A stretch of 64,000 bases of DNA from Gemmatimonadaceae bacterium (GTDB lineage: Bacteria; Gemmatimonadota; Gemmatimonadetes; Gemmatimonadales; Gemmatimonadaceae), in assembly GCA_013816855.1 (NCBI GenBank), contig JACDDT010000005.1, positions 2,345-66,344 of the forward strand, written 5' to 3'. Within the stretch, counting starts at the first letter, position 1, and each line of letters opens with the position of its first letter. The notes under the pieces are model-generated. The model searched no databases and was not told the origin of the DNA. It saw nothing but the letters and a program-made list of their open reading frames with translations. Position numbers and translations under genes: made by a program. Below, piece by piece: positions 15,783-25,154 of this stretch.

Positions 15783-17066
15783 TTAGGCGGCGCTAGCGGC
15801 TGTTAACGCCCGTTCCTCTTTAAGGGCGTCCTCAAGGGAGGGCGGCAGACTGAGACAGAATGTGCTTCCCTCGCCGAGGCCGGACTTAACGCTCAGGTCA
15901 CCATCGAGCATCTTCGCGAGCCTTTTCGAGATTGGCAGTCCGAGCCCCGTGCCCGGCTGCTTCGTTTCCGAAACCTGAACGAACTCCTCGAAGACTCTCA
16001 CCTGATCCTCTTCCGCGATTCCGACGCCGTGATCGAGTACTTCCACGACGACTCCCGCCTCTTCCGTACGTTTGCAGCGCACTTCGATCGGCTTTCCGTT
16101 TCCAAATTTGATCGCGTTCGAAAGAAGATTGAGAAGTATCTGACGAACGCGCCGGGGATCGCTTACGATGGTCACCGACTCCCCTTCCTGGCGGAGCGAA
16201 AGCTCGGAGCCGTACTCATCGGCGAGTGGTCGCACCGTCACGAAGAGATCCTCGACGATGGCGGGGAACGAAACAGGCTGCAGAGCTAGCTCGATCTTCC
16301 CCGCTTCAATCTTCGAGAGATCGAGGACGTCGTTCACGAGCTCGAGAAGATGCCGCGCCGCTTTAAGCGTCCGCTCCAAACCAAGCGACTGCTTCTCGTT
16401 GAGGGGACCGTAAATATTATCGAGCATGAGCGTGCTGTACCCGATCACCGCGTTTATCGGCGTGCGCAGCTCGTGGCTCATCGAAGCGTAAAATCTGTTG
16501 CGCGCTCCCATTGCCTGCTCCAGCGCCGTTTGCCGTCTCTTCAGTTCTTCATTGAGCTTGAAGACCATGCGCGCGGATTCCGCCTCGGCCTCCAGAAACC
16601 GGCTGCGGTGCTCGGCTTCCAGCGCGCGCTTCTCGCTGTCAAGGATTTGCCCCGCCTGTCGCTGAATCTCACGCTGCTTCAGGTACAGGTCGACGAACAC
16701 GTTCACCTTCGACTTCAGGACTTCCGGATTGAACGGCTTGAAAACGTAATCGACGGCACCGACGGAATATCCTTCGAATACGTACTCATCATCCTTGCTG
16801 ATCGCGCTGAGGAAAATGATCGGGATGTAACGCGACTTCTCGCGTGACTTCATGATCTTGGCGACCTCGAAGCCGTTCATGATCGGCATTTGCACGTCGA
16901 GCAGGATTACCGCGAAGTCGTCGGCGAGAAGCTTGCGGAGCGCTTCCTCACCCGATGCGGCGCGCACAAGATTTTGTCCGAGCGGCTCGAGAATCGCTTC
17001 GAGCGCGAGGAGATTCTCCGGGCGGTCGTCCACCATAAGAAGTTTTACGCGGTCGTCTGCCGTCAT
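15783..17066 (-). CDS. REC-HisKA-HATPase hybrid kinase with OsaB-like receiver
   Basis: LMVDDRPENLLALEAIL...LLDVQMP; [11 protein letters not shown]; NLLSNAIKF; GTGLGL. Confidence 0.92.
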   Translation of the reverse strand: MTADDRVKLLMVDDRPENLLALEAILEPLGQNLVRAASGEEALRKLLADDFAVILLDVQMPIMNGFEVAKIMKSREKSRYIPIIFLSAISKDDEYVFEGYSVGAVDYVFKPFNPEVLKSKVNVFVDLYLKQREIQRQAGQILDSEKRALEAEHRSRFLEAEAESARMVFKLNEELKRRQTALEQAMGARNRFYASMSHELRTPINAVIGYSTLMLDNIYGPLNEKQSLGLERTLKAARHLLELVNDVLDLSKIEAGKIELALQPVSFPAIVEDLFVTVRPLADEYGSELSLRQEGESVTIVSDPRRVRQILLNLLSNAIKFGNGKPIEVRCKRTEEAGVVVEVLDHGVGIAEEDQVRVFEEFVQVSETKQPGTGLGLPISKRLAKMLDGDLSVKSGLGEGSTFCLSLPPSLEDALKEERALTAASAA

Positions 17067-17656
17067 CCCGCCTTCCTCTTCATCTGCCCGGGCGCGTTCA
17101 CCATTCTCACTAATCTGGCCGGAATATCCTGCAATGGCAGTACCTCTGCGCTGGGTGAGGCACGTTTAGCCGCCTCGGGCATCACGGGCATCTCCGCCGT
17201 CTTCGGGTCCTCGACGATTCCCTGTCCGCCGAGGGCGATGATGCGTGCGAGTCCACGCGCGCCGTCGTCGTTCGCGCCGGTGAGAACCACCCCGATCGCT
17301 GCAGACCCGAATGAGCGGGCAACGGACTCGAACGCCACATCGATGGACGGGCGGCTATAGCGAAACGGCGCGTCGACCGTGAGCGAGACCTCCCCCGCAT
17401 CTACAAGCAGGTGATAATCCGCAGGTGCGACGTACACATGCGAAGGCAGCAGCGTGTCCTTATCCTCCGCCTCGTGAATCTTCAGATCGGAGATGTCCTG
17501 GAGCAGCTTAGCCAACAAGTTGTCGGAATCCTTGCTTCGATGCTGCACCACTATGATCGGTGAGCGAAAATCACCGGGAAGCGAGCTGAGGATACGCCCT
17601 AGCGCACTTAGCCCGCCCCACGACGTTCCGATCGCCACGACCCCTGGGGTAGTCAT
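17063..17656 (-). CDS. cheB: CheB-type methylesterase, catalytic domain only
   Basis: GTSWGG (Ser), VVQH (His), LTGANDDG (Asp); RPSIDV; no receiver domain. Confidence 0.9.
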   Translation of the reverse strand: MTTPGVVAIGTSWGGLSALGRILSSLPGDFRSPIIVVQHRSKDSDNLLAKLLQDISDLKIHEAEDKDTLLPSHVYVAPADYHLLVDAGEVSLTVDAPFRYSRPSIDVAFESVARSFGSAAIGVVLTGANDDGARGLARIIALGGQGIVEDPKTAEMPVMPEAAKRASPSAEVLPLQDIPARLVRMVNAPGQMKRKAG

Positions 17657-18522
17657 TTCACCTTCCGGTAAATCTTTTCACCGGAGACCTGCTCGTAACA
17701 CTGCTCATAGCGCATGAAGCGCATCGACTCTTTGCTGCCGAGACACAGCAAGCCGAACATGCTCAAGCTGCCGTAGAACAGCTCGTGCACCTTCGTCTGC
17801 AGCTCTTTGTCGAAATAGATGAGAACGTTGCGGCAGAGGATGACGTTGAACTCGCTGAACGACTTGTCGGTGACGAGGTTGTGCTGGGAAAAAACGACGT
17901 TCTTCGTCAGCGACGGACTGAACAGCGCGCCACCGTACTTGGCCGTATAGTACTCGGAGAACGAACTCTTGCCGCCTGCGCGGATGTAGTTGTCGGTGTA
18001 TTCCTGCATGCGGTCGATAGGAAAGATTCCGCCCTTTGCACGCTGCAGCACGACTTCATTGATATCCGTCGCGTAGATGCGTGACCGCTCGTAAAGCCCT
18101 TCCTCCTTGAGCAGGATGGCCATCGAAAAAACTTCTTCTCCGGTGGAACAACCCGCATGCCACAAGCGAATGAACGGGTACGTCCGCAGCATTGGAATTA
18201 CTTTCTCGCGAAACGCGACATAGAAGCCGGGGTCGCGGAACATCGCCGTGACGTTTATGGAGAGATCGAGCAGCAGCTTCTCCATCATTTCCGGCTCGTG
18301 AAGCACGCGCTCCTGCAACGCGCTCAGGCTCGTGAGCCCTTCGCTCTCAATGCGCTTCCAGAGCCGACGACGAATCGAGGCATACGCGTACGACCGGAAG
18401 TCGAAGCCATACTGCCGGTAAACGCCTTCCAGCAGCAGCTCGACCTCGATGCGCTCGAGATCCGGCTTCGCATCAGCCGCATCCCCTTGCTTGGGACGTA
18501 CTGTTTCTATCTGTACAGCCAC
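17653..18522 (-). CDS. cheR: CheR-type SAM-dependent protein-glutamate methyltransferase
   Basis: [43 protein letters not shown]; likely GTG start at 18522 overlapping the kinase end (ORF track start 18597). Confidence 0.92.
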
Positions 18523-21500
18523 ACGCGCAGCAGCGAGAGTAGCTGGTCTGGCTCGACCGGCTTGGTGATGTAATCCGATGCTCCTGCTTCGATGCACTTC
18601 TCCCGGTCACCCTTCATCGCCTTCGCGGTGAGTGCGATGATGGGCAGAGTGCGGAACTCATCCATCTGGCGTATTGCCCGCGTTGTCTCGTAGCCGTCCA
18701 TCTCCGGCATCATGACGTCCATGAGAATCGCATCGACGCTCGAATCCTTCTGCAGCTGTTCCAGCGCCTGTTTCCCGTTCTCCGCGAACCTAACCACCAT
18801 CCCGTGATCTTCGAGCATGCTTGTAAGCGAGAAGATGTTTCTCACGTCGTCATCGACGATGAGAATCTTCTTCCCCGCCACCACTGCGTCGGAATCGTGC
18901 AGGTGCTGCAGCATTTTCCGCTTCTGCTCGGGAAGCTTTGCTTCCACTCTGTGCAGGAAGAGCGCGGTCTCGTCTAGCAGACGCTCCGGCGACTTCGCGT
19001 CCTTCACGATGATCGTTTCCGCGTATTTCTTGATGCGCGTTTCCTCTTGCTGCGTCAAGTCCTTGCCCGTGTAGATGATGATGGGCAGACCGCGCATTGC
19101 CGGATCCGATTTCACTTTCTCGAGAAGATCGAAGCCGCTCATGTCGCGAAGGCCAAGATCGAGAACGACGCAGTCGAATTTTTTCTCCCCGAGCGTTTTC
19201 ATCGCTTCCTCTGCCGATCCCACCGCGGTGATATCGACGTCGTCGTGGGAGATGAGCTCCACGATGCTCTGCCTCTGATTCTCGTTGTCCTCAACGACAA
19301 GGAGATTTCTCGGACTTGTATCTATGAATTCCGAAATCCGGCCGAAGGCGTTGTCGAGCGCTTCCTTATCGGCCGGTTTTTCCAGAAACGCCATCGCGCC
19401 CGCCTTCAGACCATGCTGCTTGTCATCGACTCCGGATATGATGTGCACCGGAATGTGACGCGTGTCGGGATCGCGCTTGAGACGGTCGAGCACCTGGAAG
19501 CCGTCAAGACCGGGCATGTCGATGTCGAGTGTGATTGCGTCGGGGCGGATATCGCGAGCCGCATTGAGACCCGCTTCACCGTCCAGCTCGACAATGGCCT
19601 TGAACCCTTTCTCCTTCGCCATGTCGAGAAGAACCTTTGCGAATGTGACGTCGTTCTCGATGATCAGTACCGTGCGATCGCCCTCCTCGATGTTGTCCCT
19701 ATCATCGGGGATCTCGATCTGCGGCCGGCTTCTCCGCTCCGGGACATATGGCATCGGTACCTGGCCCGCGCGCCTTTGCGGCTTTTTCGAGCGGGCAACC
19801 TGGCCACTTTGTGTGCGTGCACCCGGCTGCTTTTGCGACTCAGGCCGCTCCGAGAGCTCGTTGCCGCGGTTCCCGTAGTCGTAATCGAAACGTGTTTCCG
19901 AATCGACCCCATCAGGATGATACACTGACTGCGTATAGCGAGCCGGCAGAAACAATGTGAAAGTGCTTCCCTTGCCGACTGTGCTCTCGACTCGTATCTC
20001 GCCGCCGAGCAGCCGAGCAATCTCGCGGCTAATGGTGAGACCGAGCCCGGTGCCGCCGTATTTCCGGGTCGTCGTTCCGTCTGCCTGCTGGAACGCCTCA
20101 AAAATAAGTCTCTGCTTGTCACGCGGAATTCCGATTCCCGAATCTTCCACCGAGAAAGCAATTACCTCGTCGCTGCCATCGAGCGAGGGGTTCATGAAGC
20201 GGCGCCCCTTCTCCGCCTTTCTCACCCTTAGCGCGACTTCGCCCTTCTCCGTGAACTTGAACGCGTTCGAGAGAAGATTCTTGATCACCTGTTGTAGTCG
20301 CCCGCCGTCGGTGAAGATTGCTCGGGGCACATCGGGGTTGACCTCCACTTGGAAGCCGATCCCTTTCTGCTCCGCGAGAGGTGAGAAGTTCCTCTCGACG
20401 AAGCTCCGCACTTCGGTGAGCTCCACCTCGGTGGGGTCGACATCCATCTTGCCAGCCTCGACTTTCGATACGTCGAGCACATCGTTGATGAGCGAGAGAA
20501 GGTCTGTTCCCGACGATAGGATCGTCTGTGCGAACTCCACCTGCTTCGCCGTAAGGTTGCCATCCTTGTTGTCGGAGAGCAGCCTTGCCAGAATGAGCAA
20601 GCTATTAAGCGGAGTGCGCAGCTCGTGCGACATGTTGGCGAGGAACTCCGACTTGTACTTCGAGCTGAGCGCGAGCTGCTCGGCCTTTTCCTCGAGAGCG
20701 AGACGCGCTGCCTCGACCTCTTCGTTCTTCTGCTCGACCTTCCTGTTCTGCTCGGCGAGGAGTGACGCTTTCTCTTCGAGCTCTTCGTTAACCTGCTGGA
20801 GCTCTTCCTGTTGATCCTTGAGGAGCTCTTCTGAAGTGCGGAGCGAAGTCGCCTGCGCTTCGAGCTCGGAGTTGGAGCGCTTCAGCTCATCCTGCTGCTT
20901 GCGCAGCTCTTCCGACTGGCTCTGCAGCTCCTGCGTCAGGCTCTGCGACTGCTCGAGCAGCTCGGCCGTCCGCATGTTGGCGCTGATCATGTTGATGACC
21001 ACGCCGACGCTTTCTCCCAGCTGATCGAGGAAGAGCTGGTGGATTTGGCTGAAAGGCAGGAACGATGCGAGCTCGATTACCGCTTTGACTTCGCCCTCGA
21101 ATAGCACCGGCAACACTAGAATGTTTCGTGGCGGAGCTTCACCGAGTCCAGAAGTTATCCTGATGTAATCATCGGGTACGTTGGTGAGGAGAATCGGCTT
21201 CTTCTCGAGCGCCGCTTGTCCGACAAGGCCTTCACCGAGCTGGAAGACGTTGCCAAGGTGCTTTCTCTCCTTGTACGCGTAGCTCGCGATGAGCTTGAAG
21301 ATGGGAGTGTTGCCCTCCTCTTCCATTATATAGAACGCTCCGTGATGCGCCGAGACGAGTGGCGTGAGCTCCGACATGATGAGCTTCGACACAGACTCGA
21401 GATCTTTCTGTCCCTGCATCATCCGCGAGAACTTCGCGAGGTTGGTCTTCAACCAGTCCTGCTCTGTGTTCTTTTCGGTTGTCGACTTCAGGTTCGCGAT

Positions 21501-24500
21501 CATCTGGTTGAGGTTGTTCTTCAGCTCATCCAGCTCTCCCTGCGCCTCGACGGCAATCTGCCGGCTCAGGTCGCCGCGGGTCACCGATGTCGCGACGTCG
21601 GCGATCGCTCGCACCTGGAGCGTCAAGCTGTTGGCCATCGCGTTCACGTTGTCGGTCAGAGCGCGCCACGTTCCGGCTGCTCCCGGTACTGCCGCCTGTC
21701 CGCCGAGCTTTCCTTCCGTACCTACTTCCTTCGCGACGCGTGTTACTTCGTCGGCGAACACTCGCAGCGAGTCCACCATGGCGTTGACGGTGTTCTTCAG
21801 CTCGAGAATCTCGCCGCGCACTTCAACGGTGATCTTCTGCGACAAGTCTCCTTTCGCCACCGCCGTCGTGACGAGCGCGATGTTACGAATCTGGCTCGTC
21901 AGATTTCCGGCGAGTGTGTTCACATTGTCGGTTAGATCCTTCCACGTTCCCGCGACTCCGGGCACGTTGGCCTGGCCGCCGAGCTTTCCTTCCGTTCCCA
22001 CGTCGCGAGCCACTCGCGTTACTTCAGAGGAGAATGCGCTGAGCTGATCCACCATGGTGTTGATGGTGTTTTTGAGCTCGAGGATTTCTCCCTTCACGTC
22101 CACCGTCATCTTGCGCGATAGATCTCCGCGCGCGACAGCGGTGGTTACGTCGGCGATGTTTCTCACCTGACCGGTGAGGTTCGACGCCATGAAGTTCACG
22201 TTGTCGGTCAGGTCCTTCCATGTTCCGCCTACTCCCGGCACGTTGGCCTGTCCGCCCAGTCTTCCTTCCGTTCCCACTTCGCGGGCGACACGCGTTACTT
22301 CGCCGGCAAAGACCGACAAGCTGTCCACCATCGTATTGATGGTGTTCTTCAGCTCGAGAATCTCGCCTTGCACGTCGACGGTGATCTTGCGCGAGAGGTC
22401 GCCTTTCGCGACCGCCGTCGTCACGTCGGCGATGTTTCGAATCTGTCCAGTGAGGTTGCCGGCCATCGCGTTCACGTTGTCGGTGAGATCCTTCCAGGTT
22501 CCGCCGACGCCCGGTACTTCGGCCTGGCCTCCCAACTTCCCTTCAGTTCCTACTTCCTTCGCCACACGTGAAACTTCAGACGCGAATGAGCTAAGCTGGT
22601 CAACCATCGTATTAATGGTGTCCTTGAGCTCGGCTGTCTCGCCCTTCGCTTCGACGGTGATTTTCTGCGACAGGTCTCCGCGCGCGACTGCCGTCGTCAC
22701 TGCGGCAATGTTACGCACTTGGCCGGTGAGGTTTCCGGCGAGCGTGTTAACGTTGTCGGTGAGATCCTTCCACGTTCCGCCAACACCGGGAACGTTCGCC
22801 TGCCCGCCGAGCCTGCCTTCCGTTCCTACTTCACGCGCCACGCGCGTCACTTCGTCGGCAAACGAGCTGAGCTGATCGACCATCGTGTTGATGGTGTTCT
22901 TGAGCTCGAGAATCTCTCCTTTCGCTTCTGCGGTGATCTTTCGATTCAGGTCTCCGCGCGCGACGGCTGTCGTCACGTCGGCGATGTTACGCACCTGGCC
23001 TGTGAGATTCGAGGCCATGAAGTTCACGTTGTCGGTGAGGTCTTTCCACGTCCCGCCGACTCCGGGAACTTCCGCTTGTCCGCCAAGTTTTCCTTCCGTT
23101 CCTACTTCTTTCGCCACACGCGTTACTTCGGATGCGAAAGCGCTGAGCTGGTCGACCATCGTGTTGATCGTTTGTTTCAGCTCGAGAATCTCACCCTTTA
23201 CGTCGACGGTGATCTTTCGCGAGAGATCGCCCTTGGCGACTGCCGTCGTGACGTCGGCAATGTTTCGAATCTGACCAGTCAGGTTCGACGCCATTGCGTT
23301 CACGTTGTCCGTGAGGTCCTTCCACGTTCCGGCAACGCCCGGCACCTCGGCTTGTCCGCCGAGTCTGCCCTCTGTTCCTACTTCGCGCGCGACGCGCGTA
23401 ACTTCGTCGGCGAATGAACTGAGCTGGTCCACCATGATGTTGATGGTGTTCTTCAGCTCGAGCGTCTCGCCCTTCGCTTCGACGGTAATCTTCTGCGACA
23501 GGTCACCCTTGGCGACGGCTGTCGTCACCGCCGCGATACTTCTCACCTGACCGGTGAGGTTGGACGCCATCGCGTTCACGTTGTCCGTCAGGTCCTTCCA
23601 GGTTCCGCCGACTCCCGGCACTTCGGCTTGTCCGCCCAGCTTGCCTTCGGTTCCTACTTCCTTGGCGACGCGGGTTACTTCGGAGGCGAATGCGCTGAGC
23701 TGGTCCACCATGATGTTGATGGTGTTCTTGAGCTCGAGAATTTCGCCCTTTGCGTCGGCGGTGATTTTTCGCGACAGGTCTCCACGCGCGACTGCGGTCG
23801 TAACGTCGGCGATGTTTCTCACCTGGCCGGTGAGGTTCGACGCCATGAAGTTCACGTTGTCGGTGAGATCCTTCCACGTTCCTGCGACCTGCGGCACCTG
23901 CGCTTGTCCGCCGAGTCTTCCTTCGGTTCCTACTTCGCGTGCCACGCGCGTCACTTCCTCGGCGAACACTCCGAGACTGTCCACCATCGTGTTGACCGTG
24001 TTCTTCAACTCGAGGATTTCGCCCTTTACATCGACCGTGATCTTGCGCGATAGATCTCCGCGCGCGACTGCGGTGGTGACATCGGCGATGTTTCTGATCT
24101 GGCCGGTGAGGTTCGACGCCATCGCGTTCACGTTGTCGGTGAGATCCTTCCACGTTCCCGCGACGCCGGAAACCTGTGCCTGTCCGCCAAGCTTTCCTTC
24201 CGTTCCCACTTCGCGAGCCACACGAGTTACTTCCGACGCGAACGCGCTGAGCTGATCGACCATGATGTTGATCGTGTTCTTGAGCTCGAGTGTTTCACCG
24301 CGCGCTTCGACAGTGATCTTCTGTGACAGGTCTCCCTTCGCGACTGCCGTCGTAACCGCAGCGATGCTTCGCACCTGCCCTGTCAGGTTGGAAGCCATTG
24401 CGTTCACGTTGTCCGTCAGGTCCTTCCAGGTTCCCGCGACACCGGGCACTTCCGCCTGTCCGCCAAGCTTTCCTTCCGTGCCCACTTCTCTCGCGACGCG

Positions 24501-25154
24501 CGTTACTTCATCGGCGAAAGCGCCGAGCTGGTCGACCATCGTGTTCACGGTCGTTCCGATTCTCAGGAATTCTCCCTGGACTGACTTGCCGTCTATCTCG
24601 AGAACCATCTTCTGGCTCAGGTCGCCGTCGGCCACCGCGGTAAGCACACGCGCTATTTCAGTCGTCGGTGAGACGAGATCGGTGATAAGCGAGTTGAGAG
24701 AATCGACGGTACGTCTCCAACCGCCTGCCATCGGACCGATTGAAGCGCGCTCGGTCATGTGCCCTTCACGCCCGACGGTCGTGCTCACTCGCACCATCTC
24801 ATCGGCAAGCCGGCTGTTTTGTTTCGCGACACCATTGAACGACTCGGCGATCTCCGCGAAAATCGGATCGTCGGTGATGGGAAGGCGAACATCAAAATCG
24901 CCATCAGCGAGATCTTTCATTGCAGAACTGAGGCGGCGCAGATATGCGTCCCGGCCTCGTTCGCCCCCGATCATCAGCTCGGCTTCGCCGTGATCACCGT
25001 TTCCATTCCGGCCTCCGCGGCCATTTCCATTTTTCTTGCCGTTGCGGCCTTTCGCGCTGTTTCTTCCACTGCGGCCGGAAGCAGACGCTTGCCGATTGCG
25101 GGCAGGACTGGTGTCCTGAGCCTGCTCGGCGTCCAGGGTATCTCCGATTTCCAC
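18507..25154 (-). CDS. Cytoplasmic poly-HAMP hybrid histidine kinase (HAMPn-GAF-coiled coil-HisKA-HATPase-3xREC), OsaA/group III-like
   Basis: Eleven 92-aa repeats, [33 protein letters not shown], three receiver domains; no TM helix; AGGAG RBS. Confidence 0.95.
21453..24488 (-). repeat. Eleven tandem 276-bp coding repeats (92-aa HAMP units)
   Basis: Unit [29 protein letters not shown]...EVTRVAR counted 11 times; synonymous divergence between units. Confidence 0.92.

Follow-up and report, generated by a model that had tools for sequence, protein, structure and literature searches.

A poly-HAMP hybrid kinase linked to its own CheR and receiver-less CheB: a candidate methyl-accepting histidine kinase in a cassette found across bacterial phyla

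The stretch of DNA analysed here (64,000 nucleotides [nt] of a Gemmatimonadaceae bacterium, assembly GCA_013816855.1, contig JACDDT010000005.1, positions 2,345 to 66,344; hereafter the window) carries a four-gene operon. Its genes encode, in order, a soluble hybrid histidine kinase with a long array of HAMP domains (kinase 1), a CheR-family methyltransferase, a CheB-family methylesterase that lacks a receiver domain, and a smaller histidine kinase with an N-terminal receiver (REC-HK). We propose, with a probability of about two in three, that these genes form a two-kinase cassette in which the sensor kinase is itself the methyl-accepting protein. Judging from the sequence of the coiled-coil S-helix of kinase 1, the glutamates most likely to be reversibly methylated, and so to set kinase output, are the pairs E1450/1451 and E1457/1458. 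In chemotaxis, textbooks base sensory adaptation on reversible glutamate methylation; to our knowledge glutamate methylation has been shown only once in classical histidine kinases, and in one direction only, for the RsbK/RsbM pair.

The first evidence comes from the distribution of the cassette. One genome per species was scanned with the window CheB protein, which gave 80 loci, and all open reading frames (ORFs) of these loci were annotated using domain probes from the window's own genome. The loci are in Gemmatimonadota, Cyanobacteriota, Actinomycetota (many of them Gaiellaceae), Myxococcota and other 'delta' lineages, and Pseudomonadota, and further in Bacteroidota, Chloroflexota, Acidobacteriota, Armatimonadota, Bdellovibrionota and Spirochaetota. 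The gene order is the same in almost every locus: an N-terminal sensor followed by GAF-HK-REC(2-3), then CheR, receiver-less CheB and REC-HK (or REC plus other domains). Most CheR/CheB-linked orthologs of kinase 1 have three receivers. No MCP (methyl-accepting chemotaxis protein), CheW or CheA domain is found next to the cassette in any of the 80 loci. Where the HAMP probe gave no match, Pfam identified CHASE3-HAMP-GAF or 4HB_MCP-GAF arrangements, an architecture known from CfcA, BmsA and RsbK. The window holds the soluble poly-HAMP form of a core that is conserved throughout this widespread cassette. A conserved CheR beside a sensor part that differs between loci (poly-HAMP, CHASE3-HAMP or 4HB) leads one to expect its target in the shared core.

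The cassette can also be split. In Nostoc sp. NIES-4103 (L037, L129, L130) CheR, CheB, REC-HK and a REC protein are encoded together at 3.2 Mb; two NEEL motifs (see below) occur in a CHASE3-GAF-HK-RECx3 kinase at 8.15 Mb, and a poly-HAMP paralog at 2.34 Mb has NAEL. Since the trio is unlinked from both kinases, linkage is not obligatory, and paralogs differ in the state of the motif.

The two enzymes have clades of their own. When 67 CheB catalytic domains are placed in a maximum-likelihood tree (neither this tree nor that of CheR includes the Pseudomonas proteins), the canonical receiver-bearing CheBs split off with support of 100/99, and these include the copies from contigs C134 and C156 of the window's own genome. 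A single clade (100/96) holds the receiver-less CheBs linked to kinases and adjoins the CheB domains of CheB-CheR fusion kinases. The kinase-linked CheR clade likewise has full support in the Shimodaira-Hasegawa-like approximate likelihood ratio test (SH-aLRT 100), and its internal branches are short against a very long stem (3.2 changes per site); the window CheR is 83% identical to that of locus L022. Cassettes of the CHASE3 type (Rhizobium L092, cyanobacteria) sit inside the window's clade in both trees. Both enzymes appear catalytically competent, as the preliminary description of this DNA had held: Ser12, His39 and Asp131 of CheB are invariant in 67/67 aligned CheB domains, canonical ones included, and CheR spans the whole S-adenosylmethionine-binding domain in alignment to structures 5FTW (5e-29) and 1AF7. 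According to Pfam, CheB consists of the methylesterase domain only; the N-terminal receiver of chemotaxis CheB is missing.

The CheB tree also contains a third non-canonical group (100/99), made up of L205, L214 (G004), L209 and L216 (G008), which stands apart from the kinase-linked and fusion clades. The CheRs adjacent to L205 and L209 pair at 98. In G004 two CheB genes of this group lie side by side at about 956-958 kb.

The preliminary description called the system chemoreceptor-free. This is right for the window, which is without MCP, CheA and CheW, and wrong for the genome, an assembly of 2.47 Mb in 170 contigs that is about 95% complete and has Gemmatimonadota metagenome-assembled genomes as its closest relatives. 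The window is part of contig C52, on which no MCP, CheW, CheA or further CheR or CheB is found. The genome as a whole encodes four MCPs, seven CheW-domain matches (two of them CheA-like), three CheRs and three CheBs. Two complete Che clusters, on C134 and C156, each have their own CheR and REC-CheB, which makes the window enzymes a third, separate pair. The MCPsignal domain is absent from 8/13 cassette-bearing genomes searched. One of these eight is a Gaiellaceae chromosome, complete at 3.1 Mb, and two others are about 6 Mb in size. In such organisms the cassette enzymes cannot act on chemoreceptors, and this is the most telling argument against MCPs as the target. Taken together, the separate clades, the synteny across phyla and the MCP-less carriers make it very probable that CheR and CheB are reserved for the kinase cassette rather than for MCPs, in agreement with the preliminary description.

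Which part of the kinase is the target? The linker of about 120 amino acids (aa) that joins GAF to the phospho-accepting histidine is extremely conserved across phyla (...QQEELQQ[TV]NEELEEKA...). Among loci L019-L098 the distance from the end of GAF to this histidine is most commonly 119, next 112, and otherwise 105 or 91, with a few cases of 86, 106-107 and 113-115. Since the main lengths differ by whole heptads, the register of the helix from sensor to kinase is mostly preserved, as for a continuous coiled coil. The two candidate glutamate pairs, which belong to a motif EEL...NEEL, are seven residues apart and, as read by eye, appear to occupy heptad positions f and g beside a core of L1452, V1455 and L1459.

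Homologous kinases without adjacent CheR/CheB served as controls. These came from a search of 201 Actinomycetota and 201 Myxococcota genomes, from which 40 neighbourhoods were taken, a kinase being called unlinked on the basis of 4 kb of flanking DNA. Removal of near-duplicates left 43 linked and 14 unlinked kinases. The exact motif, scored within 70 aa before the phospho-histidine, was present in 34/43 linked versus 0/14 unlinked kinases (Fisher p=1e-7, sequences treated as independent). Comparison by position pointed to the same residues: the first glutamate of NEEL (His-53) differed most, being E or Q in 95% of linked versus 36% of unlinked kinases (Fisher p=1e-5), followed by His-60 (95% versus 71%) and His-50 (93% versus 57%). 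Because such a fixed-offset comparison puts one clade out of register (its linker is a heptad shorter), the motif search was used instead. On the tree of kinase cores the label linked or unlinked switches about seven times and the unlinked kinases make up about eight lineages (by reading of the tree). Each of these lineages is altered in at least one of the four glutamates, the forms being NAEL, NIEL, NQQL, N[ST]EL, NVDL and QQQEL/QQEQL/QTQEL.

The unlinked kinases of Actinomycetota are OsaA-like (HAMP x3-6, GAF, HK and one receiver, with an OsaB-like regulator, some 275 aa long, encoded next), and several of those of Myxococcota are Ask-like, with REC-HK directly after the kinase. Among the Actinomycetota and Myxococcota loci L052-L173, linked kinases nearly always have three (sometimes two) receivers and OsaA-like kinases have one.

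The coil recurs in a different setting. In a 1681-aa CheB-CheR-PAS-GAF kinase of a Polyangiaceae genome, the CheR domain is immediately followed by this heptad NEEL coil, so that the same heptad code occurs in an unrelated architecture whose sole common feature is CheR/CheB.

Several points weigh against the S-helix as the methylated element. The statistic for motif and linkage treats sequences as independent, and the unlinked set is small (14). The exact motif is missing from 9/43 linked kinases when scored over 70 aa, although several of these nine have it further upstream or belong to the clade in which the linker is shorter by a heptad. NEEL itself survives in three unlinked kinases, with the neighbouring pair changed. 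A kinase called unlinked may still have CheR/CheB encoded elsewhere, as Nostoc NIES-4103 illustrates. EEL...NEEL also differs from the methylation consensus of MCPs. Lastly, the presence of the motif is partly confounded with that of three receivers; here locus L176 speaks the other way, since its kinase combines three receivers with NIEL in place of the motif and is without CheR/CheB.

Where methylation occurs, which way it acts and how phosphoryl groups move we infer as follows. The dedicated CheR would methylate the heptad-spaced pairs E1450/1451 and E1457/1458, and possibly also E1442/1443 and E1460/1461, and the receiver-less CheB would remove the methyl groups. By neutralizing charge, methylation may shift the packing of the coiled coil and tip the balance between kinase and phosphatase output, in the way of MCPs and of the scheme proposed for RsbK, and this bias would set the gain or the baseline of the pathway. 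Phosphoryl groups would be handed on to four receivers, the three of kinase 1 and the one of REC-HK. REC-HK would act as a second-tier kinase relaying the signal to an output regulator. As CheB has no receiver of its own, any feedback would have to come via conformation-dependent access to the substrate or via a receiver (one of the four) acting in trans. The adaptation or memory that the preliminary description had inferred for the operon is overstated, the classical phospho-feedback loop being absent. Its core idea, a methylation system directed at a kinase, is upheld; its osmosensor part is speculative.

Could methylation instead run one way, as the constitutive maturation or repression proposed for RsbK/RsbM, with CheB mainly a deamidase or a housekeeping enzyme? 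RsbM operates without a cognate esterase (PMC4574943), the window CheB is without the feedback receiver of chemotaxis, and loci with CheR alone exist (L158). In nearly all 80 loci, however, a CheB with an intact triad is kept beside CheR, which argues for selection on demethylation, and we consider a one-way scheme unlikely, though worth keeping in mind.

A further alternative is that the pair modifies another site in the cassette (REC-HK, a receiver, or another kinase with a NEEL coil) and that the S-helix motif is structural or serves to dock a receiver. The RsbK S-helix does also interact with the receiver (PMC4574943), and the covariation of the motif with receiver number would fit docking; L176 is the counter-example. 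As to REC-HK, residues ~170-180 of the window protein include [LM]NEEL[KQH]RRQ about 26 aa before the phospho-histidine, and this motif is mostly kept in Gemmatimonadota orthologs. In other phyla the REC-HKs contain a PAS-like insert and lack the motif, whereas CheR and CheB are conserved there; the REC-HK linker was accordingly rejected as a universal second substrate. Only one other protein of the window's own genome has the EEL...NEEL coil. This histidine kinase (C85:1-846, outside the window) is cut by the contig start, lacks a receiver and carries EELEVINEELTATNEEL / AQEELEVINEELTATNEELQRK before DHp; it could be a second substrate of the window CheR/CheB. Given that the precedent of RsbK is methylation on the S-helix itself, we regard a target other than the S-helix as improbable.

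That the pair serves canonical chemoreceptors elsewhere in the genome, its place between two kinases reflecting co-regulation only, is very improbable: the four MCPs, the two Che clusters and the retention of all canonical catalytic residues in CheR and CheB would allow it, but each cluster has a CheR and a REC-CheB of its own, the window enzymes fall in other clades than these, most of the cassette genomes searched (8/13) have no MCP, and CheR3 and CheB3 of P. putida (cfcB/cfcC) play no part in chemotaxis according to the statement in PMC4951495 that cites Garcia-Fontana 2013.

The proposed methylation of a kinase on its S-helix by a neighbouring CheR homolog has a close parallel in Bacillus cereus. 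RsbK of this organism, which belongs to the sigma-B stress module, is a membrane-bound protein with CHASE3, HAMP, GAF, S-helix, HK and a C-terminal REC (PMC4574943), and RsbM, a CheR-type protein encoded in the same operon, methylates the RsbK S-helix in vitro and thereby represses signalling in a system that has no esterase (PMC4574943; PMC9912610; PMC12848376). By architecture, the window shares with it the GAF domain, S-helix, HisKA/HATPase core and receiver together with the adjacent CheR-type gene. It differs in that RsbK has CHASE3, one HAMP and one receiver and works without CheB or REC-HK, its output being the PP2C regulator RsbY. The methylated residues of RsbK, which we take to be Glu439 and Glu446, are not used as evidence here.

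The closest match in gene order is in Pseudomonas. In P. putida a CHASE3/GAF hybrid kinase is encoded by cfcA, which opens the five-gene series cfcABCDE (PMC4951495), and the same order of kinase, CheR, CheB and hybrid kinase is found in P. brassicacearum 3082-3079 and P. alkylphenolica bmsA (PMC8175716). The window has this four-gene order of cfcABCD and bmsA (GAF hybrid kinase, CheR, CheB, second receiver-kinase), which supports the comparison with Cfc-type loci made in the preliminary description (PMC4951495, PMC8175716). CfcA and BmsA have a periplasmic CHASE3 and respond to salt, and the output is the cyclic di-GMP regulator CfcR, whereas the window kinase is soluble with about 25 HAMPs. 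No REC-GGDEF(-EAL) regulator like CfcR lies next to the operon, the genome at large not having been searched for one. Orthology of the cassette to RsbK, RsbM and CfcA is suggested by the shared architecture and by the CHASE3-type members of the same clades.

The sensor half of kinase 1 has its relatives elsewhere. Kinase-type poly-HAMP arrays that precede GAF-DHp-CA-REC are a defined class, represented by crystal structures of Myxococcus xanthus AskA, in a description that does not mention CheR (PMC13446029). Kinase 1 shares with AskA, OsaA and the fungal group III kinases the alternation of canonical and non-canonical HAMPs in di-HAMP units of 92 aa ahead of these domains (PMC13446029). In the Ask system AskB is followed by the hybrid kinase AskC, whose receiver binds Rec3 of AskA (PMC7643160); AskC, like CfcD, is analogous to the REC-HK partner in the window. 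The OsaA-like and Ask-like genes sampled here differ from the window in having no adjacent CheR/CheB, and EEL...NEEL is lost in all of them (for instance NAEL in the OsaA-like clade); OsaA-like kinases mostly have one receiver against three in the window. The array matches the Protein Data Bank entries 9TRK (E=2e-89) and 9TRJ (2e-41), which are named only 'histidine kinase, Gcn4p' and which we take to be AskA poly-HAMP fragments, as PMC13446029 describes AskA fragments with a GCN4 adaptor. The alternating array and the match to 9TRK bear out the comparison with OsaA made in the preliminary description and mark kinase 1 as a poly-HAMP kinase of the OsaA/AskA type.

Two other systems have CheR and CheB as well. 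CheB-CheR fusion kinases are the nearest outgroups to both kinase-linked clades and have the same heptad xEELxxxNEEL coil, but their enzymes are fused in cis to the kinase, the coil follows CheR instead of preceding DHp, and the sensors are PAS or GAF domains. The canonical MCP-CheA-CheW systems use the same enzyme superfamilies and, presumably like the cassette, glutamyl methyl esters at heptad-spaced sites on a coiled coil; the window differs from them in having no MCP, CheA or CheW, a CheB without a receiver, enzymes of separate clades and a different site motif.

How much of this is new? The preliminary description rated the system as poorly described, which is half right: a CheR homolog that directly methylates a GAF hybrid kinase is already published, namely in B. 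cereus RsbK/RsbM (PMC4574943). The cassette is known genetically from Pseudomonas (cfc/bms), and the methyltransferase half is known biochemically from RsbK/RsbM. New here are the separate CheR and CheB clades, the MCP-less carriers, the EEL...NEEL motif that tracks linkage, and the presence of the same motif in a CheB-CheR fusion kinase. On balance, and by a modest degree, we favor a more general reading, namely that a large cross-phylum class of HisKA-type sensor kinases is methyl-accepting and that the heptad 'xEEL' coil (EEL...NEEL) is a second, non-chemoreceptor substrate code for dedicated CheR and receiver-less CheB. Poly-HAMP, CHASE3 and 4HB hybrid kinases would present the code to enzymes in trans, and CheB-CheR fusion kinases would do so in cis. 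Ordinary two-component systems would thereby acquire a reversible control of gain like that of chemotaxis, and the OsaA-like and Ask-like lineages that lost the enzymes would also have lost the glutamates.

The family occurs in many soil and aquatic phyla, where methyltransferase and methylesterase travel with the kinase, in many genomes without any chemoreceptor. If the proposal is true, many two-component systems have a built-in mechanism of adaptation or set-point control, methyl-accepting kinases can be recognized by EEL...NEEL from sequence alone, and the poly-HAMP kinases of Myxococcus, Streptomyces and fungi gain a natural comparison with and without methylation.

The stimulus may be osmotic or ionic stress, although this is a doubtful guess, made by analogy with CfcA, OsaA, Ask and the fungal group III kinases. 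The osmosensing role given in the preliminary description likewise goes back to analogy, and neither sequence nor neighbourhood offers direct support for it. The operon's flanking genes encode SucA (the E1 component of 2-oxoglutarate dehydrogenase), a Gly-zipper protein, a MOSC protein and an RlmL-like methyltransferase; they are unrelated to osmoadaptation and give no functional hint.

The domain structure of kinase 1 was established with Pfam, which found 13 HAMP and 12 HAMP_2 stretches, GAF, HisKA, HATPase_c and three Response_reg stretches. The protein begins with a disordered N-terminus of about 60 Gly/Arg/Asn-rich residues and continues with some 25 HAMPs, GAF, the coiled-coil S-helix, DHp/CA and three receivers (Table 1). 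It has no hydrophobic segment of the membrane type, and Pfam found no CHASE3 in it. In the array, 13 canonical HAMPs (GD[LF]S, with a period of 92 aa) alternate with 12 non-canonical ones. The underlying DNA repeat (276 nt x 10.6 copies) is only 76% self-identical, which shows the array to be old and makes an assembly artefact unlikely; recent amplification of the repeat or mis-assembly was ruled out on this ground. The acidic pocket, phospho-Asp, Thr/Ser and Lys are kept in all three receivers of kinase 1 (by eye).

Table 1. Features of the operon, in window positions; residue numbers are those of the kinase 1 protein
Feature	Position	Strand	Basis
Kinase 1, soluble hybrid histidine kinase, 2215 aa	18507..25154	-	ORF + Pfam
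Poly-HAMP array, residues ~62-1228	21471..24971	-	Pfam; motif GD[LF]S
GAF domain, residues 1250-1387	20994..21407	-	Pfam GAF_2 1.8e-19
S-helix, ~120-aa coiled coil from GAF to phospho-acceptor His1510; candidate methyl-accepting helix	20628..20993	-	
EEL...NEEL motif, residues 1448-1463; candidate sites E1450/E1451 and E1457/E1458	20766..20813	-	Motif search
HisKA (DHp, residues 1501-1568, His1510) and HATPase_c core	19941..20654	-	Pfam
Three tandem receiver domains	18528..19679	-	Pfam, 3 Response_reg stretches
CheR-family protein-glutamate O-methyltransferase, kinase-linked clade	17653..18597 (alternative GTG start 18522)	-	Pfam CheR_N + CheR
Receiver-less CheB-family methylesterase/deamidase, 197 aa	17063..17656	-	Pfam CheB_methylest 1.9e-53
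REC-HK, 427 aa: N-terminal receiver, then HisKA/HATPase_c	15783..17066	-	Pfam Response_reg, HisKA, HATPase_c

All four ORFs are on the minus strand, arranged head to tail and overlapping, as the preliminary description had it; CheR and CheB are co-translated with the two kinases. The overlap is 4 nt between CheR and CheB and again between CheB and REC-HK; the 3' end of kinase 1 overlaps the CheR frame by 16 nt or 91 nt, depending on whether CheR starts at GTG 18522 or GTG 18597. Kinase 1 itself starts with GTG, with AGGAG 6 nt upstream. A promoter and terminator scan gave no sigma-70-like promoter or anything else above chance. NCBIfam has no specific model for the proteins of the operon, every match falling under its cut-off.

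Of the two Che clusters in the genome, that at C134:10882-19940 appears Wsp-like by ORF order and size (CheW, CheR, CheW, MCP, CheA, REC-CheB and a gene for a 597-aa protein). Its MCP, CheW, CheR and CheB were recognized by domain match; the CheR has 511 aa, possibly with TPR, and the CheA has 721 aa.

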